A stretch of DNA of 64,000 nucleotides from Okamejei kenojei (taxonomy: Eukaryota). Shown one piece after another: positions 5,494-47,994 of the stretch (position 1 is the stretch's first letter; every line of letters starts with the position of its first letter). The stretch lies in contig CM069160.1 of the NCBI GenBank assembly GCA_035221665.1, positions 34,224,001-34,288,000 on the forward strand. Reading direction: 5' to 3'. The translations under genes were made by a program, and so were the position numbers. The notes under the pieces were generated by a model. That model ran no database searches, was not told the origin of the DNA, and worked only from the letters and a program-made list of their open reading frames with translations.

Positions 5494-6026
5494 TTACTCA
5501 CCCGGAACAGAACCGGAGCAGATTGTCAGCCACTTGTCTGTATTCCATGTCCAGAAGATAGGATAAAGTTTCTCCGTGAATTTATTCCCAGTGAAGGTGT
5601 GGAGATGTGACTTGGTGTCCACATCGTAAAATGAAACTGTCCCGGACTCATAACTGAGATAAACCCCCACCCTCCCGGGGATGTGACGGGCGGGGAGAGG
5701 GGATAGAGGGGAGGTGACTGCATCAAATTTATCATCACACCGCCCGATGCTCCAGACTCCAGTCTCCGGGGTCTGTTTGACATCTCGCTTCCTCTCCACA
5801 GACTCTGCGGCGACTCCCAGACTCCAGCTCCGACTCTCCGCCACCTCCACCTCCCAGTAATGTCTCCCCGATGTGAATCCCTCCGATCCCAGCACACACC
5901 GACAGTTTGTAAACCTCTTCCCGATGTCAGGGAGACTCCTCTGTGTCCGGGTAAATCTCACCCTCTTCCGATCCTCAGACACCTCGAGCCGTGGATGCAC
6001 TGTTTCCACATCCAGGGTGACGGAGA
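5494..6026 (-). CDS. B30.2 (PRY-SPRY) exon, distal orphan copy B
   Basis: Same acceptor, length and motifs as copy A with no indels or stops. No Ig, TM or 27-bp exon was seen between it and copy A. Confidence 0.88.
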
Positions 6027-8314
6027 CTGGGGGGAGAAGCAGAGAATCAGAGAATCCCCGGGGGTCAGGGGGAGACTCGGGCAGCATGGCCCCGGGACCG
6101 GGGGAGAGGCTGCTCAGCCTCAGGCACGGGCGGGTGGACAACTGGACGATATCCCGGCGTTTTCCCACCCACCAACATCCCATGGACAAAAACATGTTTC
6201 CCTGCTTTTCCTAATTGGGGTGGAAGTGGATGGGAAGCGGGTGAACTGTAAGAAATAAAAACAAACTGCTGGAGGAAGACCGCGGGTCACTGCCCCGTGG
6301 TGAATCCAATATTGTATTTTAAAACCAACTGTTTAATGACAACATACAGTAGGATCTAAAAGTGTCACATTTTCACTGTCGGGTAGTCATGGTCCTCTAG
6401 TCGTGGGGGTGGGGGTTGGGAGGGGGGCCTCACAAATGAAATAGCTTAGGGCCTCTCTTCATCGAAATCTGGCCCTGTCTGTGAGAATGTGTGTGTGAGC
6501 GTGTGTTAGAGAGTGTGTGTGTGTAAAAGATTGTGAGTATGTGAGTATGTGTGAGTGTTAGAGTGTGAATGTGTGTTAGCATGTGTGTGTGTGAGAGAGA
6601 GTATTTCAGAGTGTGAGAGTGCATATATAAATGTGTGTGTGTGTCCATATAAATATATACCAGGCAAAGCTCGTAATGCTCACTCAGTGCGTGTACATAT
6701 TGGGCAGAGGTGAGGAGAACTGGTGGAGCAAGATAGGTGGGTTCAGGTGAGGGGGTGGGGTGATTGGTAGAATGACCAGGTGGGGGAGAGAAGGGTGGAG
6801 ACAGGAACCGAGGCTGGAGGTGATGTGCTGAAGACAAAGGGATGAGAATGATGGATTCTGATAAGAATTGAAGGTGTGGTGAGAAACGTAGAACCAGAGG
6901 GAGGTTGGAGCGCATTGGATCTAAGAGATAGCTAATTGGATAGAACATTGGCTTCATGGAGGGAAGCAGAGGGTGATGAGGGAAGGTTGGTTTCCGGACT
7001 GGAGGCCTGTGACTAGTGGTGTGCCTCACGGTTCTGTGCTTATTTCAATGATCTGGGTGAGAATAGTAAGATTAAATGAGAACTTACCAGTTTGAAGTTT
7101 GATCTTGAATTTTATGAGGAGTTACGTCGGTGATTACGTGAAGAAACCCACCAGTGCGCATGCGCATCAATCTTCAAAGCAGCGGTATGAATTCACAGAT
7201 GACAAAAATCGAAGTAAACGTAGTAAGATTAGCAACCTGAGAACTACCAGATGACCTTTATGAGAGAGGGTTGGACGTGGACGGCACGTAACTCCTCATA
7301 AAATCAAGATCAAACTTCAAACTGGTAAGTTCTCGTTTAATCTTACTATTTTATTTCGGAGTCACGCGAGTGATTCCGTGAAGGGTTCAAAGCCTTGTGA
7401 TTTCATGCCGCATCCAAATCTCGGCGTCTCACTGCATCGATTGACTCAAGATGAGTGAATAATCAAAAAATGCATTAAGCATGAAGCCTTATCTTAATAG
7501 ACAACCCTAGCCATATTCCCAAACTTGCTTGGAATGCTAGTACTAGATGTTGTTATCCTTTGTGTGTTGTACAAACAAGTGTAAACTTGTGAGTGGTCCA
7601 CTTACCCATGTTTCGGTAGTGCCAGAACCACCTTGTTGAGTAGGTTTGGTAGGGTGCGTGGAAAGTCTGCCCAGCTGTCATGCTGCCCCCAGCACCAGTG
7701 AACAGCGTACTGCTGATGAGCGCCTGGGGTGCGTTCTGAAACGATGAACCTTTGCCCGCCGCCTTAATTGATCCGTCTGCCAGGTTTTTTCCGCTGTTGA
7801 ATAGGTCTTACCTGAATACCAGATTCGGCGGCTGGCTCTCACATCCCCCTTTTTTCGCTGTTCACTGCCGGCACATATGTGCTCCAGTATGTTCCATCGA
7901 CATCTTTAGAGCCTGGAGTCAGTTACATCTTGACCTTTTGCACTCTCCTCCTCAGAGAGGGCGATTTGTAGGCAGCCCTAAACAGGCGCTACCGCAGGCC
8001 GCAGGATACCTGCGCTGACATGGCCCCATTGGACCTGTACCAGGATGGAACATTCTGCTGGGATGGCAACTTTGTTGTCAGGAAAGGGTACCTCTGACAC
8101 GTGCCCTTCATCCCTTGGGGTCTGCCCCACGGCCATACCCTGAGACTCAGCGTCAGCAGGATACTGACCCGTCCTGGTCTCCGCCTCCAAGAGGGAGACA
8201 TGAAGCAGCCCTGTAACTGCTGCTGCTGGTGCAGCCTGCAGATGGAACATCTGGCTCAACGTCACCATCAGAGTCGGGGTCAGAACTAAGGTGACCCATG
8301 GCACGCGCCTCATC

Positions 8315-11300
8315 ATAATAATAATATAATAATAATAATAATAATATATTTTACTGTCATTACACATAAGTGCAACGAGATTTGGTTTGCAACTTCCATC
8401 CGATTTCATAACTTAATCGACAAATAAAATTTAGTTTTAAATATCCTGAGAACAAGGTTTGTAAAAACGAACATTAGACCAGTAAAATCAACACAGACTA
8501 AAGTGCGAGGCCGGGGGAGAGTCCATGGGGGTGGGGTATACTCAGCAGGGCCGGTTCAGAACTGCTATAGCTCTGGGAATGAAGCTGTTCCTGAGTCTGG
8601 TGGTGCGGGCTTGTAACGTCTGCCGGAAGGGAGTAGTTCGAACAGTCCATTACAAGGGTGTGAGGAGTCTTTATGGATGCTGACAGCCTTCCTGAGGCAC
8701 TGTGTGTGGTAGATGCCCTCCAAGGCTGGTAGCGGTGTCCCAATATTCTTCTGCGCTCTGTGGACGACGCGCTGTAGAGCTCTCCTCTCCGCCTCCGTGC
8801 AGCTGAGATACCACACAGAGATGCGATACGTTAGTATGCTCTCTGTGGTGCAGCGGTAGAAGGTCGTCAGCAGCTGTTGGGGCAGACCAGTCTTTTTCAA
8901 TGTTCTTAGGAAGAGCAGTTTTTGCTGTGCCTTTTTGACCAGCGCAGCGGTGTTGGTGGACCATGTGAGGTCCTCTGAGATGTGAGTGCCCAGAAACTTA
9001 AAGCTGGACACTCTCTCCACACTGTCTCCGTAGATGGAGATTGGGGCATAGTCCCCATTCTGTGACCTCCTGAAGTAGATAATCAGCTCCTTGGTCTTGG
9101 AGGTGTTTAGCAACAAGTTGTTCCGTGAGCACCAGTCCGACAGGTTCTACACCTCCGTTCTATAGTTTGTTTCATCACCGTTGGTGATCAGCCCGATCAC
9201 CGTTATGTCGTCTGCAAACTTGACAATGGTGTTGTCAAATGCAGGGACACAGTCGTGGGTGAAGAGGGAGTAGAGCATGGGGCTCAGTACACAGCCCTGT
9301 GGTGTGCCGGTGCTCAGGGTGATAGTGGAGGACAGGTGCGGCCCTAGTCTCACTGCCTGCGGTCGCTCCGTCAGAAACTTCAGGATCCAAATCGCATAAC
9401 AGTGAGCTGAGGCCTAGTTGGTGGAGTTTGGTGGTGAGCTTGGTGGGGATGACCGTATTGAAGGCAGAGCTATAGTCAATGAAGAGCATCCTCACATAGG
9501 TACCCTGTCTTTCCAGGTGGGTCAGGACAGTGTGAAGAGCCACAGAGATGGCATCTTCTGTGGATCTATTTGCCCTGTATGCAAATTGATGAGAGTCCAA
9601 TGATGCAGGGATGCTGGATTTGATGTGGGAGAGGACCAGCCTTTCAAAGCACTTCATTGGTATTTGTGTTAGGGCAACCGGGCGGTAGTCATTCAGGTTG
9701 GTGACTTTAGACTTTTTCGGCACCGGCACTATGGTAGCTGTCTTCAGGCACTTGGGGATCATTGCCAGAGATAGAGACAGGTTGAAGATCCTCGTAAAAA
9801 CCCCCGCCAGCTGTACAGCACAGTCCTTCAGTACCCTACCCTGGACTCCATCCAGGTCTGCAGCCTTGCGTGGATTGATCCTACACAGAAGGCACTGTAC
9901 CTCCTGGGTGCTCAGTGTTAAGGCCTGTCCCTCCACCCTAGCCGGGGTTGCTCCTCTCCTGGTGGTGTTGCCAGTTTCGAAGCTGGCAAAGAAGTTGTTT
10001 AATTCATTGGCCAGTGTGATATCACTGTGGGGGCAGACGGGGCTGCTCTTGTAGTCAGTGATGTCCCTGACACCCTGCCACGTGCTTCTGGTGTCCGCGG
10101 TGTTGAAGTGGTCTTCCACCCTTTGCCCGTGGATGTCTTTGGCCTTTTTATGCCTTTGTTCAGGTTTGACCTGGCAGCACTGTAGGCAGAAGTATCCCTG
10201 GATTTAAAGGCAATGTTGCGTGCCCTGAGCAGGTTCTGAACCTCCTTGTTCATCCACGGTTTGCGGTTTGGGAACATCTTTATTTCCTTGTCCACTGTGA
10301 CAGTCTCCACACAGCAGTTGATGTGGGAGAGCACAGTGGATGTGTACTCCTCCAAGTTAACCTCTGTACCACTGGTAGCCTGTTGTGCAAACAGGTCCCA
10401 GTCGGTGCGATCAAAGCAGTCCCGGAGTTGCAGGGTGGCGTCCTCAGGCCATATTTTGACCGTCTTTGTTGCAGGTTTGGTCTTGCGGATGAGGGGTTTG
10501 TATGCAGGCAGTAGAAACAGTGAGAGGTGATTGGATTGTCCCAGGGATGGGCAGGGGAGGGCTCTGTATGCGTCCTTGATGTTGGTGTACGCTTTATCCA
10601 GTGTGTTTGAGCCCCTGGTAGGGCACTGCACATGCTGGTGGAATTTGTGGAGTGCAGCTCGTAGGTCCACCTGGTTAAAGTCCCCTGCAACAATGAAGGC
10701 ACCGTCGGGGTGAGCATCCTGCTGCTTGCTGGTGGCTGAGTGCAGCTGTGCTAGCGCTAGGTTAGCATTAGCCTGTGGTGGGATGTATATGGCCATGATG
10801 ATAACCACAGTAAACACCCGAGGCAGGTAAAATGGCCTACATTTAAGCAGTAGGTATTCCAGGTCTGGGGAACAGTAGCTCTCTGCTGCAGTGTGGTTGG
10901 TGCACCAGTCCTTGTTGATACAGATGCAGAGCCCGCCACCCTTGCTCTTACCGGAGTCCTTTGTTCAATCAACACGATGCAGTGGTTAGGCCTACAGCCC
11001 CGTCGGGAACCAGCGCGCTGAGCCAGGTCTCTGTGAAGATCAGCACACAGCAGTCTTTCAGGGATCGCTGGGTGTTGATCCAGAGCCTCACCTCATCCAG
11101 CTTGTTGGTGAGTGACCGGACATTCGTGAGAGACACTTGGTAGCGATGGTCTTTGTGGGGCCCTCCGTAGCCTGTCCTGCACCCCCGCTCGCCTTCCACG
11201 TTTCTGCTTTCTCTCCCGGCGCATTCTCCGTCTCCTACCCTCCGGGGTGGTGATCCAGGAGGCTGTTGTGCCAAGCTCCATCAGGATTTTGGTGAGGGTA

Positions 11301-11787
11301 CAGTAGGACTCACCAGCCAGGTTCTCGCTTCCACGTCCGATGTTGAGCAGTTCCAATCGGCTCCACGTACGACCTGTCGGGATCGCAGTGCGGGTACTAG
11401 ATATCCCCGTCCTGGAGATGAGTCACTTACTGTGTTTTCTGGGGGTACTGGGATTTCTAGGGGTTCTAGGGGTTCTGAGGTTTTTATGTACCTGATTTCC
11501 ACAACAGCGTTCGGTGCCGGGCTGCTCCCAATTAACTCGGACTGGGGAGCGCAACGCCGCCGTGTCTGATTTCCCCGTCCTGGAGGTGAGTCCCTTACGG
11601 TGTTTTCGGGTCGTACTGGGAATTCTAGGGGGGGGGGGGGTACTGGGGTTTCTAGGGGTTCTAGGGGTTCTCGGGGTTTTAGGGTTTTTACATACCTTGT
11701 TTTCACAGCCGTGTTCGGTCGCGGGCTGCTCCGAATTCACTCGGACTGAGGAGTGTAAAGCCGCTGCGTCTGAGCACGCCGCCATCT
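8315..11787 (-). mobile_element. Near full-length, frameshifted Rex1/Babar-type LINE nested in the DIRS-like element
   Basis: APE (NVRSLTNKLDE, FTETWL, AGDFN), RT ([27 protein letters not shown]), a (TAT)n tail at 8315-8346, a 5' end AGATGGCGGC and a candidate TSD TCATC. Confidence 0.88.
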
Positions 11788-12128
11788 TCATCTTCATTCC
11801 CATCATCATCCATGAGGGTTCTATCAAGCAGCCCTTTACTAGGTGCTGCTGGCGCCTTTTGTTCAGTGTGGCGCTGACACTCCTCCTGCTGGAGTGTGCC
11901 CTGCTGCAGCACTCTATGCAATAGTTGCTGCATTTGGGATAGTCGCTCAAACGCACTATCCAGCCCCCATGAGGAATCATCCCCCGACTCCGTGGGCCTA
12001 TTATTTTGCTATCCAGCCCCGGTGGGGAATCATCCCCCGACTCCGTGGGCCTAGCAGACTTATGTGTTACCTTGAGCAACCTTGAGTTGCTGGCGCCGCC
12101 TCTTGTAGAGGCCGGCGCCTTTTTATAT

Positions 12129-13052
12129 GAAGCAGCCCTGCCCCAGGCGCTGCTGGCGCGGCTCTCCCGTAGGCCGGCGCTTTCACACACGAAACAGCCC
12201 TATCCCAGGCGCTGCTGGCGCGGCTCTCCCGTAGGCCGGCGCTTTCACACATGAAACAGCCCTATCCCAGGCGCTGCTGGCGCGGCTCTCCTGTAGGCCG
12301 GCGCTTTCACACATGAAACAGCCCTATCCCAGGCGCTGCTGGCGCGGCTCTCCCGTAGGCCGGCGCTTTCACACGTGAAACAGCCCTATCCCAAGCGCTG
12401 CTGGCGCGGCTCTCCCGTAGGCCGGCGCTTTCACACATAAAACAGCCCTATCCCAGGCGCTGCTGGCGCGGCTCTCCCGTAGGCCGGCGCTTTTAAACAT
12501 GAAGCAGCCCTATCCCAGGCGCTGCTGGCGCAGCTCTCCTGTAGGCTGGCACTTTCACACATGAAGCAACGCTGTCCCAGGCGTTGCTGGCGCGGCTCTC
12601 CCGTAGGCCGGCGCTTTCACACATGAAACAGCCCTGTCCCAGGCGCTGCTGGCGCGGCTCTCCCGTAGGCCGGCGCTTTCACACATGAAACAGCCCTGTC
12701 CCAGGCGCTGCTGGCGCGGCTCTCCTGTAGGCCGGCGCTTTCACACATGAAGCAACGCTGTCCCAGGCGCTGCTGGCGCGGCTCTCCCGTAGGCCGGCGC
12801 TTTCACACATGAAGCAGCTCAATCCCAGGCGCTGCTGGCGCGGCTCTCCCGTAGGCCAGCGCTTTCACACATGAAGCAACGCTGTCCCAGGCGCTGCTGG
12901 CGCGGCTCTCCCGTAGGCCGGCGCTTCCACACATGAAGCAGCCCTGTCCCAGGCGTTGCTGGCGCGGCTCTCCTGTAGGCCGGCGCTTTTAAACATGAAG
13001 CAACCTTATCCCAGGCGCTGATGGCACGGCTTGTCCCATAGGCCCGCGCTAT
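12129..13052. repeat. GC-rich 62-bp tandem array, about 15 copies, inside the DIRS-like element
   Basis: Units start at 12129, 12191, 12253, 12315 and so on, with consensus GAAACAGCCCTATCCCAGGCGCTGCTGGCGCGGCTCTCCCGTAGGCCGGCGCTTTCACACAT. Confidence 0.95.
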
Positions 13053-15140
13053 TACAGTGTAGTCTCGCTAATCTTGTTGTGTAGAGCTTCACCTGTGAAG
13101 GGTTATAAGTAGTACAGCATACATGCAAAAAATATCTTTATTATTGGAGAGAAACCCTTGCAGCCCGACTCACCTGAGCCCAATAGGGCTGAACGAGTCC
13201 TCTCTGCACCAATTTTACTCCCTGCCTGGGGCCCAACGTGTCTGTGAGCCACTGACCGCACTGTCAGCGACTCTGGCATTACTTACTTGCCACTCCTCGG
13301 CATCCCCGCAGGCTGGAAGCCACTGACTGCCCTGTCAGCGGCTGCTTATCTCAAAACCCGATCTTTTACCGGCTATCCGCTTCCGCGGTGGGACCGGGGT
13401 TTTCCCCACGGCCCATAGCCGGCTCACTCGTCGGGCTCTGCAATAAATCTGGCAGGAAAACCTCTGTGAAGAGAGGCTCCTGCTTGAACAAAAACCCTGG
13501 AAAGTAAAAGAAACTTACCTTCTAGGTTTAAACTTACCGCCGGCCTGAGCGATGTCCTGCCAGTCCGGTGCTTGCGCCAATGAGGCTGACGTACTGACGC
13601 GCATGCTCACTGGCGAGGTTCTTCACGGAATCACTCACGTGACTCTGAAGTAAAATGTACATGGCATGATTAGCAAGTCTGTAGGTGACACAAAAGTGGG
13701 TGGTATTGCGGATAGTGAAGATGTTTGTCAAAAATTACAGCAGGATCTTGATCAGTTGGGCAGATCGGCAGATCGGTTGATGGTATTTAATACAGGATTA
13801 AATACAAATGTAATGTAGGAGTGCAGTAACATAGTTCCTTGAAAGTGGCTTCACAGGTAGATAGTGTGCTCATAAAGTGTTTCAGCACATTGGCCTTCAT
13901 CAGTCACAGTATTGAGTATAGAAGTTGGGAGGTCACGTTGCGGATATATAAGACGTTGGTGATGCCACATTTGGAGTGTTGTGTTCAGTTCTGGGCACCT
14001 TGTTATAGGAAATACGTTGTCAAGCTGTAAAGGGTACAGATAAGATTTACGAGGATGTTGCCAGGACTCGAGGGCCTGAGCTTTAGGGAGAGGGTGAGCA
14101 CGCTAGGACTTTATTCCCCGTAGCGCAGGAGGATGAGGGGTGATCTTATAGAGGTGTACAGTATTGTGAGAGGAATAGATCAGGTAAACGCACAGAGTCG
14201 CGTCCCCAGAGTAGGGGAATCACCAACCATAGCTTTAAAGTAAGGGGGGGGGGGGGGGGGGGGGGAGTACAGTAAACAGGAACCAGAGGGAACTCTTTTA
14301 CCCAAAGGGTGATGCGTAGATGAAACGAGCTGTCGGAAGAGGTAGTTGAGGCAGAAGATAGAACGGGCGGATAGTCACAACCTTCTTTCCAGGGTGAAAA
14401 TGATCAAATACTAGAGGACAGAGCTTTAAGGTGAGAGGGGCAAAGTTGAAAGGATTTGTGCGGGGCAAGTTGTTTTTCAGAGGGAGGGGAGTACCTGGGA
14501 TGTGCTGCCAGGGGTGGTGGTGGAGGCAGATATGATAGTGGCATTTTAAACAGACACCTGGATATACAGGGAATGGAGGGATATGGATTATGTGCAGGCA
14601 GATAAGAGCTGGTCTTTGCACCATGTTCTGCACAGACATTGTGGGCTGAATGGCCTGTTCTGTGCTGTACAGTTCTACGTTACATTGAACCATTCATGAT
14701 CTGCGCTTTAGCCGACATAACACACACCAGATAGTATTATTGAATTATACATCAGACTGTACTTACCATAATATCGTTCCACATCCTCGTATCCTGCACA
14801 AAACAGAAACATTTCACATTTTCACTGCAACTAAAATTGGAAATAAAATAATGACAGTGGGAGCACGGAACAGAGAGAGGGGGGCACAGTGACGCAGCTC
14901 TTCACAGCTCCAGGGACCTGGGTTCAATCCTGAATTTGAACAGCTAGATACCAAATTGTACAGCAGAACCAAGAAGGTAATAATCTCTGGATTGCTACTT
15001 GAGCCGAGAGCAAATTGGTATAGAGTTGAGAGGATTAGAGAGTTGAATGCGTGGATCAAAGTCTGATGTGGAAGTAGTAGATTTGAATCTGTGTGACATT
15101 GGCCCCAGTATTGGGGAAGGAGGGAACTGTTCCGACGGGA

Positions 15141-15364
15141 CAGACTCCACTTGAACCCGGCTGGGACCAGACTCCACTTGAACCCGGCTGGGACCAGATT
15201 CCACTTGAACCCGGCTTGGACCAGACTCCACTTGAACCCGGCTGCGACCAGACTCCACTTGAACCCGGCTGGGACCAGACTCCACTTGAACCCGGCTGGG
15301 ACCAGACTCCACTTGAACCCGGCTGGGACCAGACTCCACTTGAACCCGGCTGGGACCAGACTCC
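15141..15364 (+). repeat. The same 27-bp minisatellite x8 in duplicate copy A
   Basis: Eight EPGxD units in ORF 15093..15431. Confidence 0.9.
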
Positions 15365-27400: not shown

Positions 27401-28487
27401 ACTGGCCGAGCACGCGGTCCGCAGTGCTAAAGGATTGTTGGAACGTTGCCACCTATCCCGCTCCGACATCTACCTGGCCCTGCTGAACCTCCGCAACATC
27501 TCCCGCGACCATGCCCTGGGCTCCCCGGCTCAGTGACTCATGTCCCGTGTCACGAGGCCCACGGTCCCGGTGTCTCAGCAGTCCCTGTCCCCCTCCGTCT
27601 TTAAACCTTCCTTGGTCCGGAAACGCATTGCCCAGAAACACGGTATACAGAAGCGTTCCCACGACAGGTCCTGCCGTGTCCTTCGCCCTCTTCTCCCCGG
27701 CCAGGTCGTCCGTATGAGGTCCACTTCTGGCAGTTCCAAGCTGGCCGTGGTCGTCGTTTGTACCTTGTCAACCACGACGGCAGGGTGTACCGCCAGTCCC
27801 GCCAGCATCTCCGGCTCGTGAATGAGCCTCTCCCTCCCCCGGCGGCTCCATATGCCCCCCCCCCCGCTGCCACTTTCGCGGCCTCGTGCCTTGCCGGTTC
27901 CTCTGGGGTCCCCCCCTCGTCCTTCCCCTGTCCGTCTCCCGGCTGCGGTCCCGCTTTCTCCGGCTTCCTCGCCCTTCTCTTCGCCATCCCCCCCGATGCC
28001 CTCATCGCCCAGGGGTTCTCTTGTCCGTAGCCCCCACCACGCCCCGGCGTCGTCCCCGCTTGTTCCCGTCAGCGAAGGTGGTGATGGCGAGGTGCGGACC
28101 CGGTCTGGTCGCCTGGTCAGGGTGCGGGTCCGTTACAGTGATTACGTGTGATTCTGTATTGCCGTGCCCTACTGTTTGCATTCACCTTAGCGCATGAGAC
28201 GTGGTCGCCCTGTCACTCACTGTTTGTTTTTGTAGAGGAAGGATGTAGATGATATGTGTATACACCTTTAATTGATAGTGACGATGTCCATGCTAACCAC
28301 TCCCCCACCAGTTAGTATAATTGTAACCCACACGCCCCTAGCTCTCTCTCTGGTGATCGTGACAGACCACGTACAGCTAGGGCAATAATGTGCGATTAAT
28401 AAAGTAGTGAAGATCCCGGTATCCGTGAATATACTTTACATGCAGGATTCCCTGAAAATTGCTCTGCAAGTTGAATTGATAGTATAG
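21410..28487 (+). mobile_element. Degraded CR1 (paralog of 2308-5370), interrupted by the Gypsy element and 3'-deleted
   Basis: Colinear with the copy-B CR1. It resumes at 28446 for about 40 bp and then ends. Confidence 0.88.
23801..28440 (+). mobile_element. Gypsy/Ty3 LTR retrotransposon, full length, frameshifted
   Basis: LTRs 23801-23999 and 28244-28440 (TG...CA), 5-bp TSD TGCAG, PBS TGGCGTCAGAAG at 24000 (tRNA-Leu-like) and PPT 28234-28243. Gag CCHC knuckle, protease VDTGA, RT IVDD, RNase H CDAS and integrase SDNG occur in Gypsy order. Confidence 0.95.
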
Positions 28488-28554
28488 AAAGCTGTGCCCC
28501 CATGCCCCCCCCCCCCCACCCCCACATCCCAAAGACCCGCAGTTTGCTTGTCTG

Positions 28555-29087
28555 TTACTCACCCGGAACAGAACTGGAGCAAATTGTCATCCACTCGTTG
28601 GTAAGCCAAGGCCAGAAGAAAGGATAAAGTTTCTCCGTGAATTTATTCGCAGTGAAGGTGTGGAGATGGGACTTGGTGTCTGCGTCGTAAAATGAAACTG
28701 TCCCAGACTCGTAACTGAGGTAAACCCCCACCCTCTCGGGGATGGGACGGGCGAGGAGAGGGGATGGAGGGGAGGTGAATGCATTAAACTCATCACCCTG
28801 TCGCCCAATGCTCCAGACTCCAGTCTCCGGGGTCAGTGTGACCCGTCCCTTCCTCTCCACAGACTCTGCGGCGACTCCCAGACACCACAACCGACTCCCC
28901 TCCACCTCCATCTCCCAGTAATGTCTCCCCGATGTGAATCCCTCTGATCCCAGCACACACGCCCGGGCCGTAAACCTCTTCCCGGTGTCAGAGAGACTCC
29001 TCTCGGTCCCGGTCCGTCTCACGATCTTCCGATCCTCGGACACCTCAAGCCGCGGATTTGCTGTTTCCATATCCAGGGTGACGGAGA
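28555..29087 (-). CDS. B30.2 (PRY-SPRY) exon, proximal copy A
   Basis: Acceptor cttctccccccag|TC TCC. Translation VSVTLDMETANPRLEVSEDRK...KRF...VLGSEGFTSGRHYWEMEV...RVGVYLSYESGTVSFY...LYPFF is open through TAA at 28557-28555. Confidence 0.93.
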
Positions 29088-29858
29088 CTGGGGGGAGAAG
29101 CAGAGAATCCACGGGGGTCAGGGGTCGACTCGGGAAGCGCGGCCCCGGGACCGGGGGAGAGGCCGCTCCGCCTCGGGCACAGGCGGGCGGACAACTGGAC
29201 AATATCCCGCCGTTTTCCCACCCACCAACATCCCATGGACAAAAACATGTTTCCCGGAGTTTCCTAATTGGGGTGGAAGTGGAGTGCAACCGGGTGAACG
29301 GTGAGAAATAAAAACAAACTGGTGGAGGAAGTCCACGGGTCAGGCAACACATGTGTAAGGAAATGACAGAACACGTCTAAGGTCTAGGGTCTAGACACTT
29401 CTTCATTCTCATGCTTCCCTCTGCTCCCTCGGTAGCAAGAGATGCAGCAAATACATTCACACGCACACAGTCTCTCTCTCTCTCTGTTTCTCTCCCTCTC
29501 TCACACACACGCATTCACACAGATACACAAACACACACACAAACTCATTCACACACACACACACACACACACACATACATGTGCGCACACACACACACAC
29601 ACACTGTGATGGATATTCGCTTTCCAAGACAAAGGCTTGTTCACTTCTCAGGCACAAATGATTTTTGCTAACCTCAGATTTTTAACACAGCAAAAGGTTC
29701 AAGATGTTTGTTGTTCAGTAAGTTCGGAATCTAATCATAGAAACATAGAAAATAGGTGCTGGAGTAGGCCATTCAGTCAGCACCGCCATTCAATATGATC
29801 ATGGCAGATCATCCAAAATCAGTCCCAGTTCCTCCTTTCTCCCCATATTCATTGATTC

Positions 29859-33256: not shown

Positions 33257-33283
33257 CTTGGTGGCCACGTATCCTCTTCCACT
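33257..33283 (-). CDS. Butyrophilin-like 27-bp linker exon (EWKRIRGHQ)
   Basis: Acceptor tttctgttttcag and donor CAAG|gtaaga. A 27-bp, phase 1-1, W-basic exon is typical immediately before B30.2 in BTN genes. Confidence 0.75.
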
Positions 33284-35751: not shown

Positions 35752-38700
35752 TCTATATTACTAAAAGTCTGATCGTGACCGCTTTTTGCCCGCTGTGCTG
35801 CGATCTCAGAGAGAAAGCCGCCATCTACGGCCGTCATTTTTGGCCACCTCGCTCAGAGACCCCCTCCGCCTGCCTTGCCCAGAGGAATTTTCCCATCGAT
35901 GAAAAATGAGATATTAATCTTATTACCAAATTCCCCATGTGTCGCGCCTCACTAAGTCTCTGCCAGACCCAAGAAGCCAGAGGGTCACGGCTCACGGCTC
36001 TCTGAGCTGCGAATAACACTGAACGTATTGGTTGTAAAGTGTGCGTCTCAAGCATGAACGAGAAAGATCGCAAATAAGAAGGCTTCAAGAGACAGGAGAT
36101 AAAAAACTAAAAGACTGGCTGAACAGCAGGCCAGAGATACAAGAAGACAAAATGCACAACTGGTAAGGAGAAATCTTTCTTCTGATGTTGGTCAAATGAC
36201 AAAGGTTTGCCCTCACTGTCGAGCGTACCGTTTCCCTGGAGAAACCACCAACTTTTGCTGCATGAATGGTCAGGTGAACATTGCTCCTGTGCAGGCACTG
36301 CCTAATGAACTCATGAGACTGTATACTGTTGACACTCCACAAGCAAAGGAGTTCAGAAGGAATATTAGACAATACAACTGTTTATTTCAACTGACGTCAT
36401 TCGGTGCCAAGGAAGTGGTGCCACCCGGATGGAATCCTTTAGTGATCATTCAAGGCCAGATTCATCATTACATTAGTTCGTTGATGCCTGACCCAGATCA
36501 ACAAAGTCGATTCTTGCAGATCTATTTTATGGACCCCCAAGATAGCATTGAATTGCGAATGGGTATACTGCAAAATGCTGGTATTCAAAGGGAAATTGTT
36601 GCAATGCTTGAACGCCTGATAAGACAAAACAACCCTTACATTGAAACACTTAAAATGGCAAAGTAAAGAATTTGAGGTTTACCAGAGGCATCAATCATCA
36701 TAGATCCAAATCATGTACGTTCGGAAGTATGGCAATGCTTCATTCTTCATTACGATGACTTGCAATCAGAACTGGAGCGAGATCCGACAGTCGCTCTTTC
36801 ACAGTCTGCAGCCGTGTGATAGACCAGATTTGATTGCAAGAGTATTTGATCTGAAAAGGAAGATATTCATCAAGTACGTCTCTGGCCCAAACGGGCTCTT
36901 TGGCAACTGTATAGCTTTTGTCTCCACTGTGGAATATCAGAAGAGAGGCCTGTCTCATTTGCACTGTCTGCTGTGGCTTGACGAAGCCACTAAGCCAAGA
37001 CCAAATGATTTTGACACATTTGTGCGAGCTGAAATACCAGACCCGCAAGTGGATCCTGAGCTGCATGAATTGGTACTCACGCACGTGATTCATGGACCGT
37101 TCTGCAACCACGCCTCTCCATGTCGGAAGAAAGGAACATGCAGTAAGAGATTCCCAAAACCATTTATCGCGAGCACAAGGTGTGGACATAATTCATATGC
37201 TCTATACAGGAGAAGATCTCTAGACATGGGAGGATTTCTGGGATATCAAGAAGAACGCCAGCATCGACCTATCACTTCTGATTGGGTGGTGCTCTATAAT
37301 GCTGAATTATTGAAGTTGTTCAAATGTCACATCAACGTTGAGATATGCTGCTCTATAAAGTCAGTCAAATACGTCATCAAGTACACCATGAAGGGAAGTG
37401 ATCAAGCATCTTTTAGAGTTAACAGGGATGACAAAATTTTTTACAGTACTTGACTGGCAGATACATTGGTCCATCAGAAGCAGTGGCATTAATCTTTGGA
37501 TTTCCGACTCATGAGAGACACCCCGCTGTCTTTCGACTCCAGGTACATCGACCAGGAAAACAACGAGTTTTTCTCAGACTCGATGCTGCTGAACACGGGA
37601 CCAATGGTCATATGCCGAGAATGACTGAATTCATGGCATTGTCTTCTCAAGAGCCATTTCCAAGAACACTCGACTACAGTGATGTTCCCCGATTTTACAC
37701 ATGGAACAAAAAGAGATGGCAAAGAAGAAAGGCCTGGAAGACAGTGCAAGATCATCTAGGTATTTTTGAATCTAACGTTCTGGGACGAGTGTATACCGTG
37801 TCTCCAAAATGTGGTGACCTCTACTACTTGAGACTGCTTCTCTATCACATAAAAGGACCAGTATCCTTTGATTCATTGAAAACACATGAGGGACAAATGT
37901 ATCCTTTCTTCAAAGACATCTGCAGACAAAGAGGTTTGTTGCAGACAGATGGCCATTGGCAACAAATAATGGAAGGTGCTGAGAACACAAGTGCAATGAG
38001 AGATTTGTTTGTTGTTTTGTTGACGAATACTGAGATCAACGATCCTCGACAATTATGGGATCTCTTCAAGAATTCAATGTCTGACGATTACCTTGAAAAA
38101 GAACGGAGAACAATGAATGATCCTAATATCGTGATTGAAGAGAAGGGGAAATGATGCTGATGTTGAAAATGCCTGCATCAAGAAATCCTACATGTGGAGA
38201 CTTTTCACCAAGTTTCAATTGCACACAAATATGCGATAGACAGAGGGAGAAGGCGACTATTCTCAATTTTTGTTGAAAGTTGGAAAAGGCAAGATTTTAA
38301 AGAATGAAGACGATGAAATTGAAATCCCACAAGACATGCTTCTGTCAGCAGAAACACTGGAGGATTGTATTGATTTCATCTATCCCACATTTGACAATCC
38401 TGCAGAATTATTCTCCAACAATTGTATCTTGGTTCCTCACAACGATACCATGAGAAGCATCAATTCTACATGCATCAGACTCTTCCCTGGAATCGTTAAG
38501 GAGTACTTTTCTTACAATGCTGTCACTGAGGGAACTCGTGATACTCACTTCCCAACAGAATTCCTCGATTCACTCGAGCTCTCTGGATTACCACCACACA
38601 AATTGGAGTTGAAAAAAGGATCTCCAATCATATTATTGAGAAACCTGGAGCCGCCAAAGCGATGCAATGGAACAAGGGTGATTGTGGAAGAGCTACACAA

Positions 38701-39910
38701 TAATCTGATCGCTGCAAGAATCAACATGGGAGCCTTCAAAGATGACATTGTTCTCATTCCCAGGATAGCACTCATTTTGACAGAAGGTGAAGACATTCCC
38801 CTTCAGCGCACCCAATTCCCCATTCAATCAAGTTTTGCTATGACGATCCATAAAGCACAAGGACAAACAATGCAGAAGGTGTTGATCTACCTCGACAAAC
38901 CGGTATTTCAGCATGGACAACTATATGTGGCTCAGCTGAGGAAAGATGAAGGGAAATGTCAAAGTTTTCCTGAAGGATGGAACATCGACCAAGAATGTTG
39001 TAATTAAAAGCGTGCTTCGTTGAATAATGACTTCTGTGATAAATTCTCAGATTTTCTTTCTTAAAATTTGACCGCTGAATTTCTCTATATTAAAATTGTC
39101 ACTTTTTATCAACAGGAAATAGTAATCAAGAGGCAATGAGCAGCATAACATGACAAGAGACACAACAAGAAAGAACTAAATAATTCTCATCTTTAACATT
39201 TAACTTGTTCTTATATTTTAAGAGTCATTCACATTTTAAACTTTAATAAATCCTTTTTGCTCTTTTGATGCCTGTGTGTTCTTCGTCACAATGGGAACCT
39301 AATAGGCAGGAATGGCTGCTCTGTGGGAGAGTCACTAAGAGTGCATGGGGGGAGATTGTGGGGAGATGCACTGAATGCGTGGGGGGGAGGGGAATGACAA
39401 GGAGCAGAGTGGGGAGGGGGGGGTGAAGGGAGCAGGGGTGACTGAGTGAACTGCCAGCGTACCAGGCGCGAGTGACTGCACTGCCAGCCCACGGGCCGTG
39501 AGTAAGTGAACTGCCAGCGCACCAGCCGTAAGTGACTGAACTGCCAGTCCAATAATCCATTCAGTCCACCCTCTCCCCATTTTCTCTCACAGTCTGTCAC
39601 CTGTTTTGGGCAGAATTTCTGGAAGTTTCTCTGCTACCAGCCTGGCAGGTCCGAGTGACTGTACTGCCAGGCCTCAGTGACTGACCTGCCAGCTGAAGAA
39701 TCCATTCGGCCCACAATGTCTATACTAGCCCTCTGGAAACCAGTACCTTCAGCCCACAACACCCATGCTAGCGCAACAGAAAGCCCCCCCCCCCCCCCCC
39801 CCCCCCCCCACTGGCCAGCATTGTTGGAATTGGTGGAGAGGTGGAATATTGCATTGGGTGACCAGCCCTCCCGTGTGATGCTGGGACCCAACAGGTCCCA
39901 CTTAGTCTAG
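35752..39910 (+). mobile_element. Helitron (internally deleted RepHel) with both termini
   Basis: A|TC 5' end at 35752, hairpin TGGGACC-caaca-GGTCCCA at 39882-39900 and CTAG|T 3' end. Rep motifs FITMTCN, VEYQKRGLSHLHCLLW and KYVIKY. PIF1-type helicase motifs FAMTIHKAQGQT and VFQHGQLYVA. Confidence 0.93.
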
Positions 39911-39930
39911 TTTCAATACTAAATTCTTAC

Positions 39931-39963
39931 CAAGTTCTACGATGGATTTGCGCCGTTCCAGCT
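39931..39963 (-). CDS. Butyrophilin-like juxtamembrane micro-exon (33 bp, ELERRKSIVEL)
   Basis: Polypyrimidine acceptor tttctccttccag and donor G|gtaaga. Phase 1-1 and in frame. Confidence 0.7.
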
Positions 39964-40880: not shown

Positions 40881-40994
40881 CTTTAATGCGTCTGTTTTGT
40901 TTCACGTTCCAATAAAACACAGCACCGTGGGCAGCAATGAGAAGACAAATGGTGAGGACCAGCGGCAGGACCCAGTCAGCAGGGAAGACATCAT
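40881..40994 (-). CDS. Butyrophilin-like transmembrane exon (114 bp)
   Basis: ttctgcag|AT ... AAAG|gtacgt. Translation DVFPADWVLPLVLTICLLIAAHGAVFYWNVKQNRRIK is a hydrophobic span followed by basic stop-transfer residues. Confidence 0.85.
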
Positions 40995-41198
40995 CTGCAG
41001 AATGAAGACAGTGAACGGCGAATATAGTAAACTGTCTTTAAAAATCAGTGATCATTTCCCCACAGAAGTGAGATGTGGATAAATCATCAGTGAGTGAGAA
41101 ACATGTGAGGTCCTCAGTGAGCATTCTGGGCAGTCGGGGTTTCAATGGAATGTAAATCACCTTTATACTTCAATTATCAAACAGACACGGTTACAAAC

Positions 41199-41480
41199 CT
41201 GATATTTTAACGATTGCCTCACGTTGTATGTTTAACTATCTGTATTGAACAACACACTTGATCTTGTTTGTTGATTGCCTCGTTACTGTTACGTTGCGCT
41301 CCACATTTACAAGACCTTCCGTATCTTCGTGGTACATTGTTTCAGCTTGTGGTAAAACCTGTCCATCTTCACCGATCCACAGCATCTCTGGTCCAGGATA
41401 CCATCCACCGGACTTACACACGAGCTGGATTCCATCTCCCTGGTATGCCTGCAACCGAATCCGGGGCAAACTCCCCAAAG
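41199..41480 (-). CDS. Butyrophilin-like IgC exon (282 bp) with in-frame TAG
   Basis: Acceptor tgatgcag|CT TTG and donor TCAG|gtttgt. Translation LGSLPRIRLQAYQGDGIQLVCKSGGWYPGPEMLW...IKCVVQYR*LNIQREAIVKIS contains the BTN C-type CxSxGWYPxP motif. Confidence 0.9.
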
Positions 41481-41649
41481 CTGCATCAGTGACAGATGTA
41501 GAAATAACAATAGTCAGGAAGAATAGCAACTTGGACCAAACAGCATTTTGTTCAAGTACGCAAACCTCTTGCAACAATTCCTGTACAATTTCTAATTATT
41601 TCCATTTTCAATGGAAAGTCATTGAGCAGAAATGTCAACTCTGCTTCTC

Positions 41650-44600
41650 TCTGGAAGTCATCGTCGACTTCAGGAAAAACCAGCACAGTCCCACACCACT
41701 TCACATCAATGACAGCGATGTGGAGTTGGTCAGTAGCACTAAGTTCCTGGAGGTGCAGATCACTAACAGTCTGACTTCAATTCAATTCAATTCAATTTTT
41801 AATTGTCATTGTGCAGTGTTACAGTACAGAGACAACGAAATGCAGTTAGCATCTCCCAAGAAGAGCAAACGTAGAATAATGAACGGTAAAAAAAATATAT
41901 ATGTACAAACAGTATCAGTAGTGCAATTATACTGGGGGAAGGAGCGTCCGCCGGGGGGGGGGGGGGGGGGGGGGGTGACTGGCAATCACCGAGGTGCAGA
42001 GTTAAGCATTGTAACAGCCACAGGGAAGAAGCTGTTCCTGAACCTGCTGGTCCGGCAACGGAGGGACCTCTAACGCCTCCCGGAGGAGGGTGAACAGTCT
42101 GTGGTTGGGGTGAGACCAGTCATTGACGATGCTGCGCGCCTTTGCAGACATCGCTTGCTATGGACAGACTCAATGGAGGGGAGTGAGGAACCGGTGATGC
42201 GTTGGGCAGTTTTCACCACCCTCTGCAGTGCTTTCCGGTCAGAGACAGAGCAGTTGCCATACCATACTGTGATACAGTTGGTAAGGATGCTCTCGATGGT
42301 GCAGCGGTAGAAGTTCACCAGAATCTGAAGTGACAGATGGACCTTCTTTAGTCTCCTCAGGAAGAAGAGACACTGGTGATCCTTCTTGACCAGTGTAGAG
42401 GTATTGTGGGTCCAAGAGAGGTCATCAGAGATGTTGACCCCCAGAAACCTGAAGCTGGAAACATGTTCCACCTCTGTCCCATTAATATGGATGGGGGTGT
42501 GCGTGCTACCCCTCGACCTTCTGTAGTCCACAATGAGCTCCTTGGTCTTCTTGGAGTTAAGGGCCAGGTTGTTGTCAGCACACCATGCTGCTAGGAGCTG
42601 AACCTCCTCCCTATAGGCCGACTCATCGTTGTCGCTGATGAGGCCAATCACCGTCGTGGCATCTACATACTTGATGATGGTGTTAGAACCATGTACAGGT
42701 GTGCAGTCGTAGGTGAAGAGGGAGTAGAGGAGGAGGCTCAGTACACAGCCCTGTGGAACGCCGGTGCTCAGGGTGCGGGTTGAAGAGGTGTGGTTGTCCA
42801 ACCTAACAGACTGTGGTCTGTTAGTCAGGAAATCCAGTATCCAGTTGCAGAGGGAGGGGTTGATGCCCAGGTCGCCGAGTTTGGTGATCAATTTTGAGGG
42901 GATAATGATGTTAAATGCTGAGCTAAAGTCAATGAACAGCATTCTCACGTAGGTGTCTCTGTTATCGAGGTGGGAGAGGGCGGATTGGAGTGCCGTTGAG
43001 ATGGCATCCTCCGTACTCCTATTCTTGCGGTAGGCAAACTGATAGGGGTCCAGTGTGGGAGGTAGGCAGCCTTTGATGTGTGCCAGGACCAGCCTCTCGA
43101 AGCACTTGGTGATGATGGGAGTAAGTGCAACTGGGCGGAAGTCGGTGAGGCTCGCCGCAGTGGAGTGTTTTGGCACCGGCACGATAGATGTGGTTTTAAG
43201 GCACATGGGGCCAACTGCTTGGGCAAGTGACAGGTTGAAGATGTCAGTCCAGACGTCTGTCAGCTGCAGCACAGGTCCTGAGGACTCGCCCGGGGATGCC
43301 GTCAGGGCCAGCAGCCTTACTTGCATTAATCCTGCTCAGTGCTAGATACACGTCACAGAGGGTGAGTGTGAGGGGCTGGTGATCAGCAGGGAGCACAGCC
43401 TTGATGGCCATCTCTTGGTTGTACCCGCCAAAGCGGCCATAAAAGTGGTTAAGCTCCTCAAGGAAGGATGAGTCGCTGGATGTGGGGGTGGTGTTGGTGG
43501 GTCTATAGTCCTTGATGGCCTGGATGCCTTGCCATAAGCGTCGGGGGTCAGAGTTGTTGTTGAAGTGCTCCTCAATCCTAAGCTTGTAGCTACGCTTGGC
43601 CTTCTTGATGCCCCACTTCAGGTTAGCCCTGGATGAACCGTAGGCTCGAGCATCGCCTGACCTGAAAGCGGTGTCCCGTGCTTTCAGCAGTAGCCTGACC
43701 TCGCTGTTCACCCATGGCTTCTGATTCGGGAATGTGGTGATACGTTTGAGGGTGGTGACACTGTTGATGGTGGAGTTGATAAACTCCAGAACAGAGGATG
43801 TATAAGTGTCTGTGTCCGTGTGGGAGTCGAGGGTGGCCTGGGTTGCAAACACATTCCAGTCAGTGTTTCCAAAACGCTGCTGAAGTGTGGAGTCAACCTC
43901 CTCTGACCAGACTTTAACTGTTCTCACTGTGGGTTGTACCCGTCTGATGAGTGGTGAGTACTTAGAGAGCAGGAACAATGAGAGGTGATCAGACTGACCA
44001 AGGTGGGGGAGGGGAAAGGCTTTGTAAGCTTCAGCCATATTTGTGTAAACTTTATCCAGGGTCCTGTCTTCTCTAGTGGCGAAGGAGACATGTTGGTGGA
44101 ATTTTGGGAGTACAGTCTTCAGGTTGGAGTGATTGAAGTCACCCGCAAAAATGAAGGACGCCTCGGGGTTGTGAGTCTGTTGTTTGCTGATGGCAGTATG
44201 CAGTTCTTTCATTGCAAGCTTCGCATTAACATCAGGAGCGATATAGGCTGCATATGGACCTGGTCAAATAACATCTCATCAACAGTTAAGAGAGCGCAGC
44301 AGCGGTTGCACTTTCTGCGCCGGATGAGAAGAGCTCACCTCCCCCATCCCGTCCTCACCACTTTCTACAGGGACACCATAGAGAATATTTTGACCAGCTG
44401 TATCGCTGTCTGGTTTGGGGACTGTAAAGCCTCCGACTGGAAATCCATGCAGAGGGTGGTGAGGACGGCTGAAAAAATCATCAGGACTTCTCTCCCCTCA
44501 ATCGGGGACATTGCAACCAAACGTTGCGTGTCTAAGGCCAGCAGTACTATAAAGGACCCCACACATCTCCATCACGGACTGTTCACTCAGCTGCCCTCGG

Positions 44601-44865
44601 GCAAAACATATTGTAGCATAAGGAGCAGAACATCAAGGTTCTGCAACAGCTTCTCCCCACGAGCCATCAGACTCCTGAATGCCATGTAATAGGCTGCCAC
44701 CATTGTCTATTTATCCTTTCATCCATTTTATCCATTTATCCATTTTATCCTTCTGTTTATTATCGTTTTGCACGGGAAGCCAAATGCAACGGAATTTTGT
44801 TTGGAATTGCATATATCGATGTATTTCTAAATGACAATAAAGTTTGTTTGATTGATTTTGATTGA
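41650..44865 (+). mobile_element. Older Rex1/Babar 3' fragment (41650-41775 plus 44257-44865)
   Basis: The rejoined flanks read VDFRK...QITNSLT|WSNNISSTVKRAQQRLHFLRR. AATAAA and a (TTGA)n tail follow. Confidence 0.82.
41776..44256 (-). mobile_element. 5'-truncated Rex1/Babar LINE with two long ORFs, nested in an older Rex1 fragment
   Basis: ORFs 43244..44212 (APE C-part) and 42070..43326 (RT), a (TTGAA)n tail at 41776-41797, and flanking GAC. Confidence 0.9.
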
Positions 44866-45730
44866 CATTAACAAAATAAAAATAAAAATAAATCTCTCCC
44901 CAGATGCTGCCTGACCTGCTGAATGTTTTCAGCATCGCTGTAATTAAATCCAGGCTGAGAGTGACAGGGTAAATGGCTGGGCCCTGGAGAGTGTGGTGGA
45001 ACGGAGATATCCAGGGGTCCGAGTATATGGCCACCTGGAAGTAGCACTCGCGGTCATTATTGGGAAAATTGGTGTCATCCTCCACAACCAACCAATATTG
45101 ACCTTGAATGCCTGTGGGGCAAGGACTTATATGTGGCAGCATTTGTTTGATGCATCTAGGAGGGTTTGCTGACACACTAGGCAGTTAATCCTTCGCTCGG
45201 TGGGATTATAATTGACCCTGATTTGGGAAATGAGTGCAACGAGGTGGAGTTTCAAAGGGAGAGTATAAATATATATATATAAATGTGTACATATATGCTG
45301 TATATGGTGAGTACATTTTACCTTCAGTAAGGAGACAAAGACTGTGCCCCAGGTGAGGCCTCATCAACATCCTATATAACTGTGATGAGGCTTCCCAACA
45401 TTTATTCTCCATTCCCCTCAATTAAAAACACTGGGACAGATGTGATGGAACTCCAGTTAAACACATTCCCATGGCTGCCCTCCATTTACTCAATGGTAGA
45501 CAAACATGCTGGAGAGACACAGCGGGTGAGGCAGCATCTATGGAGCGAAGGAAACAGGCAACGTTTTGGGCCGAAACCCTTTCTCCATTTACTCAAGTTA
45601 CTTCTCAATGTAAACATTACAACAGCACGTTCTTAATTATGTAATTATAAATCAACATTGTTGATTGAACGCTCTTTACCATTTGTTCTTTTCACATTTA
45701 TCGTCAACAATCAGTGTTTTACTTACTCAC

Positions 45731-46078
45731 CTCGAACTCGCAGTTGTGCTGGAGATGTTTCATACTCAGTTCCTTCTGTAACTGAACATGTATATTCCCC
45801 TTCATCAAACCTTCTTACGTTCTTTATTCTGAGGGAAATGTTCCCTTTGGCCACTTCATCTTTAAACAGTTCGGCTCTTGCTCTGTAATCCTGGTGTTGA
45901 GCGAGGGTGTCATTGTGTCCTTGTCTGTACACGAGGACTGGTGAGGTGAGACCTGACCTCCTCCACTGCACGACCATGTTGCTGGTCAATATATCTGGGA
46001 CAAGCTGACATTCCAACACCACATCCCCACCTACAGTGGCTACAAAACCATCGCCCGGTACAATAACGAGAAATTCAC
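45731..46078 (-). CDS. Butyrophilin-like IgV exon (348 bp)
   Basis: Acceptor cccgcag|GT GAA and donor CGAG|gtgagt. Translation EFLVIVPGDGFVATVGGDVVLECQL...VQW...YRARAELFKDEVAKGNISLRIKNVRRFDEGEYTC has the canonical V-set C/W/DxGxYxC motifs of the B7/BTN type. Confidence 0.93.
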
Positions 46079-46139
46079 CTGCGGGTCAATTCAAATAATT
46101 GAAAACATGATTATTTAGGAAATCAATACGGGGAACCTC

Positions 46140-47560
46140 TTATTGAAGGTCGAGTCGCAGGTAGATGAGGTGGTCAAAAAGGCCTTTGGCTCTTTGGCCT
46201 TCATCAGTCAGACTATTGAGTACAGAGAACTTGGGAGCTCATGCTGCAGTTGTATTAGACGGTGGTGAGACCGCATTTAGAATATTGTGTTCAGTTCTGA
46301 GCACCATGTTATAGAAAAGATATTATCAAGTTTGAGAATATTCAGAAAATATTTACGAGGATGTCCCCAGGACTAGAGGGTGTGAGCTATAGGGACGGGT
46401 TCATAGCAAAAGGATTTGAGTATAGGAGCAGGGAGGTTGTACTGCAGTAGTACAGGGTCTTGGTGAGATCACACCAGGAGTATTGCGTACAGTTTAGGTC
46501 TCCTAATCTGAGGAAAGACATTCTTGCCATCGAGGGAGTACAGAGAAGGTTCACCAGACTGATTGCTGGGATGTCGGGATTTTCATATGAGGAAAGACTG
46601 GATAGACTTGGCTTGTACTCGCTATAATTCAGAAGATTGAGGGGGGATCTTATAGAAACTTACTAAATTCTTAAGGGGCTGGACAGGCTAGATGCAGGAA
46701 GATTGTTCCCGGTGTTGGGGAAATCCAGAATAAGGGGTCACAGTTTAAGGATAAGGGGGAAGTCTTTTAGGACCGAGAGGAGAAAATCATTTTTCAGACA
46801 GAGAGTGGTGAATCTCAGGAATTCTCTGCTGCAGAAGGTAGTTGAGGCCAGTTCATTGGCTATATTTAAGAGGGAGTTAGATGTGGCCCTTTTGGCTAAG
46901 GGGATCAGGGGGTATGGAGAGAAGGCAGGTATGGGATACTGAGTTGGATGATCAGTCATGATAATATTGAATGGCGGTGCAGACTCGAAGGGCCGAATGG
47001 CCTACTCCTGCACCTATTTTCTATGTTCTATGTTCTGTAGGCTGGGTCTCTATTCCTTGGAGCGCAGGAGGATGAGGGGTGATCTTATAGAGATGTACAA
47101 AATCATGAGAGGAATAGATCGGGTAGATGCACAGTCCTTTGCCCAGATTAGGGGAATCGAGGACCAGAGGACATAGGTTCAAGGTGAAGGAGAAAAGATT
47201 TAATAGGAATTCGAGGGGTAACATTTTCACACAAAGTGTGGTGGGTCTATGGAACAAGCTGCCAGATGAGGCAGTTTAGGCTGGGACTATCACATTGCTT
47301 AAGAAACAGTTAGACAAATACATGGAGAAGACAGGTTTGGAGGGAAATGGACCAAGCGCAGGCATGGGGACCAGCATAGCCTGGACATTGTTGGCCGGTA
47401 TGGGCGAGTGGGGCCGAAGGGCCTGTTTGCACACTATATCACTCAATGATTCTATGACTCTAATAGGGTTAGGGAGGCAGAGATAGATCAGCCATCATTG
47501 TATGGTGGAGTAGACTTGATAGGCGGAATGACCTTAATCTGCTCCTATCACTTATAACCT
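46140..47560 (+). mobile_element. Nested CR1 3' fragments in the signal peptide-IgV intron
   Basis: CR1 ORF2 C-terminal motifs. The inner copy at about 46402-47036 ends in (TTCTATG)n. Confidence 0.82.
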
Positions 47561-47936
47561 TATAATCCAGGGATGAAGCCAGGATATGAACATTTTCACT
47601 GGTTGTTCACGATTTATTTATCAAATAACATTGGGGTCTCAACACCAATCCCCATGGGACACAACTCCTTACATCTTGCCATCCAGAGAGTAAAATGATC
47701 AGCATCCACTCTCTGCTTCCTGCTATCCCGATTATCCACGAAAATGAAGTTGCCTCCTCCTCCTGCAGGTCCCATCATCGCCCACAGAGGGAGGAAGAAC
47801 CTCCTTACTGATCGTATTAAGTGATGTGGACAACTGCATTAAAATGAGCGATTTTAAAATATGAATCTTCTGACCCCATGAAGCCGCCTCCATGACATAA
47901 ATAAATAGAAATCAGGCCAGATGGTGTGGTCATTAC

Positions 47937-47994
47937 CGTGGACTGAGCTGAGGATCCCGTGCAGTAACAACACAGCGCAGTGAACCACTCCCAT
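47937..47994 (-). CDS. Butyrophilin-like signal-peptide exon MGVVHCAVLLLHGILSSVH(G)
   Basis: ATG at 47994, a hydrophobic 19-aa leader, and a phase-1 donor CACG|gtaatg that joins in frame to the IgV exon. Confidence 0.75.

Follow-up and report, generated by a model that had tools for sequence, protein, structure and literature searches.

A skate butyrophilin gene in which a splice donor overlapping the stop codon may chain B30.2 domains in tandem

Butyrophilins control gamma-delta T cells via their B30.2 domains, and we know of no butyrophilin ligand in the skate lineage. Canonical members, such as human BTN3A1 and BTN2A1, consist of a signal peptide (SP), IgV and IgC domains, a transmembrane segment (TM), linkers and B30.2, with one B30.2 per chain (available sections of PMC12841164), and pairing of B30.2 domains was described as occurring between chains (available sections of PMC7348870). 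The only variation mentioned in those sections of PMC12841164, a survey of jawed-vertebrate butyrophilins, concerned heptad number. Butyrophilins with several B30.2 domains were described neither in the sections available of PMC12841164, PMC3137616 and PMC7348870 nor, judged by title or start of abstract, in the open-access papers retrieved. The tandem architecture is already present, unremarked, in database models. Two RefSeq butyrophilin models of the skate Rhinoraja longicauda contain two (XP_078272248.1) and three (XP_078272265.1) PRY-SPRY units; all three internal junctions read ...SIPG/SILG-YEDVQRAY-VSVTLD, and the C-terminal end, SAPGV, is TRIM-type. These entries are predicted models from an annotation that plainly fuses neighbouring genes (P0001, P0022), and in protein-collection searches with the junction none of the 42 and 44 hits was another protein that spans it. 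In an AlphaFold prediction of the Rhinoraja tandem protein (mean pLDDT 87.5, pTM 0.43) both domains folded and the linker formed a short helix after a hinge; with this pTM the packing of the domains is not predicted. A single-sequence fold was rejected as useless (pLDDT 38.6).

The gene studied here belongs to the skate Okamejei kenojei. It lies in a window, the whole stretch of 64,000 nucleotides that was analysed (G000:C30:34224001-34288000, in a 2.76-Gb genome), whose positions are used below; together with the 1 Mb fetched around it, the region examined spanned 1.064 Mb. The parts, their phases and their homologies were directly observed (Table 1). The initial annotation had described one SP-IgV-IgC-TM-linker set followed by two intact B30.2 exons, here A and B, and its coordinates, frames and phases were all borne out; the exons it stated stand, but two more, the first juxtamembrane linker and a micro-exon between A and B, had been overlooked.

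Table 1. Parts of the gene and neighbouring copies, in window positions unless a G000:C30 position is given.
Feature	Position	Strand	Details
Signal-peptide exon	47937..47994	-	58 nt, phase-1 donor
IgV exon	45731..46078	-	348 nt; V-set match
IgC exon	41199..41480	-	282 nt; nonsense codon TAG 41238-41236
Transmembrane exon	40881..40994	-	114 nt
Juxtamembrane linker exon 1	39931..39963	-	33 nt, ELERRKSIVEL
Juxtamembrane linker exon 2	33257..33283	-	27 nt, EWKRIRGHQ
B30.2 (PRY-SPRY) exon A	28555..29087	-	donor after 28563 overlaps stop TAA 28557-28555
Micro-exon	14767..14793	-	intact 27 nt, phase 1-1, G-YEDVERYY, cag/gtaagt sites
Unrelated DNA	6290..14029	.	7.7 kb, repeats and 62-bp minisatellite
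B30.2 exon B	5494..6026	-	donor after 5502 overlaps stop TAA 5496-5494
Truncated micro-exon copy	2129..2145	-	17 of 27 nt, donor lost
Micro-exon copy with in-frame TGA	386..412	-	leads to truncated B30.2 D
Truncated TRIM-type B30.2 (D)	G000:C30:34220112-34219701		left of window

The IgV and IgC ectodomain (with its TAG in this haplotype), the single TM, the short linker exons and the cytoplasmic B30.2 mark the gene as a butyrophilin (BTN/BTNL) of the canonical layout. Among the closest named proteins, the IgV exon was 87-90% identical to Amblyraja and Leucoraja and 80-82% to Rhinoraja butyrophilins (82% to XP_078272248.1), and the IgC exon matched the C2-set_3 region of annotated skate butyrophilins. 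A and B are both open frames of 176 codons with phase-1 acceptors, and PF13765 and PF00622 scored above cut-off in each. The path SP-IgV-IgC-TM-L1-L2-A-micro-B forms one frame of 648 residues, in which the TAG of IgC is the only internal stop. This nonsense codon, already noticed in the assembled haplotype, was confirmed at 41238, where six out of six paralogous IgC exons have TGG; it would block the membrane protein, and the assembled haplotype looks null. The closest paralog (G000:C30:34313554-34320250, plus strand), with an IgV identity of 98% and an IgC without stop, ends at a scaffold gap after linker 1. Interspersed with the first BTN subfamily at G000:C30:34.40-34.78 Mb are genes of a second, about 40% identical in IgV.

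Several other elements were seen in the window. An LTR pair, 98.5% identical over 649 bp, encloses gag-, pro/pol- and env-like frames in pieces at 52605-59818, presumably an endogenous retrovirus-like element. The open frame of 1004 residues at 48796-51810 (minus strand), which recurs at 98.8% identity about 33 kb left of the window, resembles, as we take it, a LINE reverse transcriptase, and broken frames at 36103-39007 (plus strand), within the intron between the two linker exons, are presumably Helitron-like Rep/helicase.

A and B both end CCG G|GTGAGTAA with the stop codon inside the donor, as had been reported, and the IgV exon's own donor, G|gtgagtaa, has the same letters. We call exons of the A/B kind E-type and TRIM-type exons V-type, and used as control 18 B30.2 exons from elsewhere (17 on C30, one on C692), for one of which an upstream RING exon was confirmed. 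All 18 of these TRIM-region exons end GGTGTGTAA and none has GGTGAGT, whereas GTGAGT is present at each of the 12 listed E-type ends, a count that excludes two degenerate copies. It is preceded by CGG in 11 of them and by CAC in the remaining paralog, whose donor is weakened (CAC|gt); eight of the 12 exons are open. Given 12 of 12 E-type against none of 18 TRIM-region ends, the donor is more than chance, and the earlier caveat of a coincidental match can be dropped. Homology to the TRIM 3' end is lost about 9 nt past the stop in E-type exons and kept in V-type ones, and the pattern of donor plus flank occurs ten times genome-wide, every time in the BTN cluster. A copy of another intron's donor was rejected as source, the pattern being confined to these exon ends and different from the subfamily-2 linker donors. 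Probably a TRIM-type end, GGTGTG-TAA, had changed to GGTGAG-TAA, which is a consensus donor and would thus let a last exon act as an internal one.

The micro-exon was found by searching for the linker peptide of the Rhinoraja models (nine residues, ending YEDVQRAY). It duplicates the last linker exon of subfamily 2: Amblyraja XP_032903494.1 and Pristis XP_051899828.1 have the same exon just before a single B30.2, as ordinary last linker, and subfamily-2 genes in the BTN cluster likewise carry a homolog in this place. Furthermore, the DNA that follows a paralogous E exon aligns collinearly with the intron-linker-B30.2 part of subfamily 2 at 89-92%. The repeated unit is therefore the linker micro-exon plus B30.2. 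As to its origin, a subfamily-2 3' end (intron, linker exon, intron, B30.2) may have landed behind a B30.2 exon with the new donor. This locus thus shows the features of the Rhinoraja-type tandem, an internal B30.2 with donor, a 27-nt linker exon and a further in-frame B30.2, and it shares with XP_078272248.1 and XP_078272265.1 the BTN subfamily, the internal B30.2 end and the homologous linker exon of nine residues. Unlike these models with their TRIM-type terminal B30.2, however, the last intact domain here, B, has retained a donor, and the module at the end is dead.

Three side observations concern these modules. A 27-bp minisatellite about 350 bp upstream of micro-exon copies marks the module at window positions 759-926 and 15137-15364. 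Two subfamily-2 genes also bear an E-micro-V tail, one of them with a TGA in its own last linker exon. Amblyraja XP_032903494.1 has three tandem IgV domains in the model, either a real repeat or a fused model.

How B came to lie behind A turned out to be less simple than a copied exon. The homology edge at 6289/29342, taken initially as the breakpoint of a duplication of the B30.2 exon only, stands, but B as an exon-only duplicate of A had to be rejected: A and B are only 86.6% identical, compared with 86.0-90.0% between A and TRIM-region exons, they are not sisters in the exon tree (star-like with poorly supported deep nodes, and used for this point only), and the copied unit runs about 10 kb downstream, including a micro-exon and a second, truncated B30.2. 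The truncated micro-exon, the TGA micro-exon and the truncated V exon behind B indicate that B brought a tail of its own. A has lost its original second B30.2: homology stops at 14029, where the unrelated DNA takes over, followed by B with 260 bp of intron. The unrelated DNA, which other BTN genes match in repeats only, stands in place of the last part of the intron that separates micro-exon and B. With 7.7 kb of foreign DNA in front of it, B may have come to follow A's micro-exon by accident.

We also rejected the possibility that B terminates a TRIM gene or a second BTN gene. The initial annotation had named upstream exons of its own as evidence against a shared gene, but neither the interval from A to B nor the 200 kb left of the window contained any IgV, IgC, TM, linker or TRIM exon, B having no RING, B-box or coiled-coil exons upstream that would place it in a TRIM gene. 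The one RING in the 1.064-Mb region (C30:35000857) is about 770 kb away from B. Genome-wide searches gave 668 B30.2 and 679 RING candidates, of which 150 of each were scored, mostly on C30. C30 carries a large TRIM expansion, with at least 150 near-identical TRIM RING and B30.2 exons. BTN B30.2 exons resemble TRIM exons (86-91%) no less than they resemble one another, which suggests exchange between the two families.

Neither does B look like an uncollapsed haplotype, which the initial annotation had considered as a way in which its proposal might fail. A and B are 13% apart, differ in their upstream DNA and lie in a single stretch free of gaps. Three 500-N gaps occur within the 200 kb left of the window, and the A-micro-B layout recurs there as an inverted copy which starts at a scaffold gap, shows 276 gap openings in 4.9 kb and is 98.9% identical further on; this copy may be a second haplotype. 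We therefore judge it very improbable that B or the further copies as a whole are an artefact of assembly, an explanation plausible only for the inverted copy and perhaps for copy C.

That more cassettes may lie beyond B had been suggested. Copy C indeed exists, 28.8 kb beyond B, but at 99.4% identity it codes for the same protein, which leaves no diversified cassette array; in aligned columns a third copy shows 100% identity. B and C differ by three silent and no replacement changes, while their flanks (about 7 kb) are 2.5% divergent (nominal P 4e-5, or 0.005 at the lowest full flank bin, in a test that is noisy with three changes only; a dead pair gave one silent to nine replacement changes). 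The silent-only changes hint that the B/C protein is made, and gene conversion between B and C is possible. Intact paralog pairs gave framework pN/pS values of 0.5-1.7, too noisy among close paralogs to rank the copies. Between A and B, pN was 0.053 and pS 0.159 in framework columns (pN/pS about 0.33); in the 28 columns found variable in a set of 12 control TRIM exons, pN was 0.50 and pS 0.20. A and B thus appear to differ like functional paralogs, a pattern that could predate B's arrival here.

This bears on the idea, prominent in the initial annotation, that the B30.2 exons are interchangeable last exons diversifying an immune sensor, with linker 2 splicing to A or skipping A for B or C. The frame would permit it, all exons being phase 1 with near-identical acceptors, and A and B differ strongly in variable columns. 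A precedent of a kind is zebrafish ftr06, where an intact B30.2 lies downstream of the exon that replaces it and yet is left out of the transcript (available sections of PMC3137616). However, B and C are one protein and the third copy agrees with them in aligned columns, so that the choice would be at most two-way; the other nearby copies are broken or near-identical. The repeated unit, moreover, includes the linker exon, which is required for chaining but not for swapping, and to skip A a transcript would have to ignore a strong acceptor in favour of one 23 kb further on. Among the splice sites and phases, no feature of exclusive choice was found. Dscam/protocadherin-type arrays have many diversified intact cassettes behind one constant part, used mutually exclusively; from A leftwards, ten B30.2 hits include only two distinct intact proteins, A and B (identical to C). 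Swapping of last exons at this locus is, in our opinion, improbable.

A more serious competitor is decay. The tandem design may be ancestral to skates and on its way out, with A as last exon and B, C and the other copies as orphan, untranslated segmental duplicates. Among 22 close micro-exon copies, five are open, 11 contain a TGA, five are truncated and one has indels. Right of the window there are six E-then-V pairs, 4-8 kb apart with collinear introns, and the second module is damaged in all of them. Where a micro-exon precedes a V-type exon (in these six pairs and in two on the left), it has a TGA in eight of eight cases, and none of the eight V-type second exons is intact at full length, one having an open frame with a deletion. 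Since indels crowd near gaps, some of the frameshifts may be assembly errors. An ATTAAA 282 nt behind A's stop, the many broken B30.2 fragments scattered over the 200 kb left of the window and the nonsense codon in IgC also speak for decay. Against it stands A's micro-exon: leaving aside its inverted duplicate, no other open copy was seen to follow an intact E-type donor directly. B and C, too, are open with silent differences only.

Contigs of putative RNA came from 22 runs, available as contigs only; 16 of these runs were guessed to be RNA, and four were aligned, over the stretch 28250-29480. Across the acceptor of A the depth dropped from 2010-3734 to 13-236, as spliced RNA of the family would give, and one contig had two differences from A over the 159 letters to the acceptor, followed by 47 further letters. 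Two contigs from guessed-RNA runs crossed the donor unspliced. They differ from A in 14 and 10 of 42 columns; one is a single letter from paralog E498 and the other three letters from the nearest copies, so that neither is A or B. Such read-through of paralogs, which counts for decay, is compatible with a one-domain isoform as well as with unspliced RNA. Among the contigs of the four runs over 28250-29480, where A's exon end is too divergent for contigs of paralogs, none was listed with a joint at 28563. In B, the first 27 coding nt contain no marker by which a contig might be linked to the linker exon. All considered, we regard decay of the design at this gene as rather unlikely.

The reading we favour, with modest confidence, is a butyrophilin with a tandem-B30.2 tail made by in-frame splicing from A through the 27-nt micro-exon to B. 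It draws on the intact micro-exon, the canonical sites and the open joined frame, on the Rhinoraja models, on the specificity of the donor, on the silent-only changes between B and C and on the recurrence of the A-micro-B layout; the dead second modules of paralogs, their read-through contigs, the foreign DNA in front of B, the predicted nature of the Rhinoraja models and the nonsense codon in IgC count against it. Of the multi-B30.2 tail proposed at the outset, the in-frame extension via the stop-overlapping donor is retained, whereas direct splicing of A to B is less likely than passage through a micro-exon, as in Rhinoraja XP_078272248.1 and XP_078272265.1. As for donor use and the roles of the domains, we infer that the protein would gain a second B30.2 when the donor is used, and that the TAA inside the donor would end a normal one-domain protein when it is ignored; both one- and two-domain forms are therefore probably produced. 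The micro-exon copies that follow B are dead, so that B would usually form the end of the chain. With two ligand-binding surfaces that differ in their variable loops, one chain might provide more avidity or dual sensing. If this is true, a chain with two or three different B30.2 domains puts pairing, or two ligand specificities, inside one protein, and the locus records both the origin of the design, by capture of a paralog's linker-plus-B30.2 end and a stop-overlapping donor, and its decay.

The best PDB match of exon A was the B30.2 of BTN3A1 (E 1e-44). Its pocket residues W350/H351/Y352 (available sections of PMC7348870) are, however, not kept in the alignment, which has A-R-A in A and N-C-R in B. 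The function is presumably not phosphoantigen sensing of the BTN3A1 type. When 1.84 billion representatives were searched with the Rhinoraja tandem protein as query, the ten hits looked up included tandem-B30.2 butyrophilin models in Polyodon (XP_041090921.1, three units), Acipenser (XP_058870411.1, two) and Lepisosteus (XP_069047490.1, two), with Atractosteus MBN3325953.1 in the same cluster as the last. As here, IgV, IgC and TM are followed by two to three PRY-SPRY units in the Polyodon, Acipenser and Lepisosteus models, but these are just 36-42% identical to the Rhinoraja protein and have unrelated linkers, which is why the ray-finned and skate forms probably arose independently. Teleost models with a pyrin domain contain even more PRY-SPRY units, eight in Salarias XP_029969401.1 and four to five in stickleback XP_040030520. 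It is tempting, if tentative, to see a recurrent and unrecognised receptor design of fish: skate butyrophilins may set the number of their B30.2 domains by splicing, giving one-, two- and three-domain receptors with different ligand loops after one base change in a TRIM-type last exon, and sturgeons, paddlefish and gars may have reached multi-B30.2 proteins on their own. In the B30.2 shuffling of fish TRIM genes (zebrafish ftr06 and ftr52; available sections of PMC3137616) the B30.2 exon is likewise a mobile 3' module in an expanding immune cluster; there, however, B30.2 was displaced by another domain, whereas in the skate gene B30.2 units appear to be chained.
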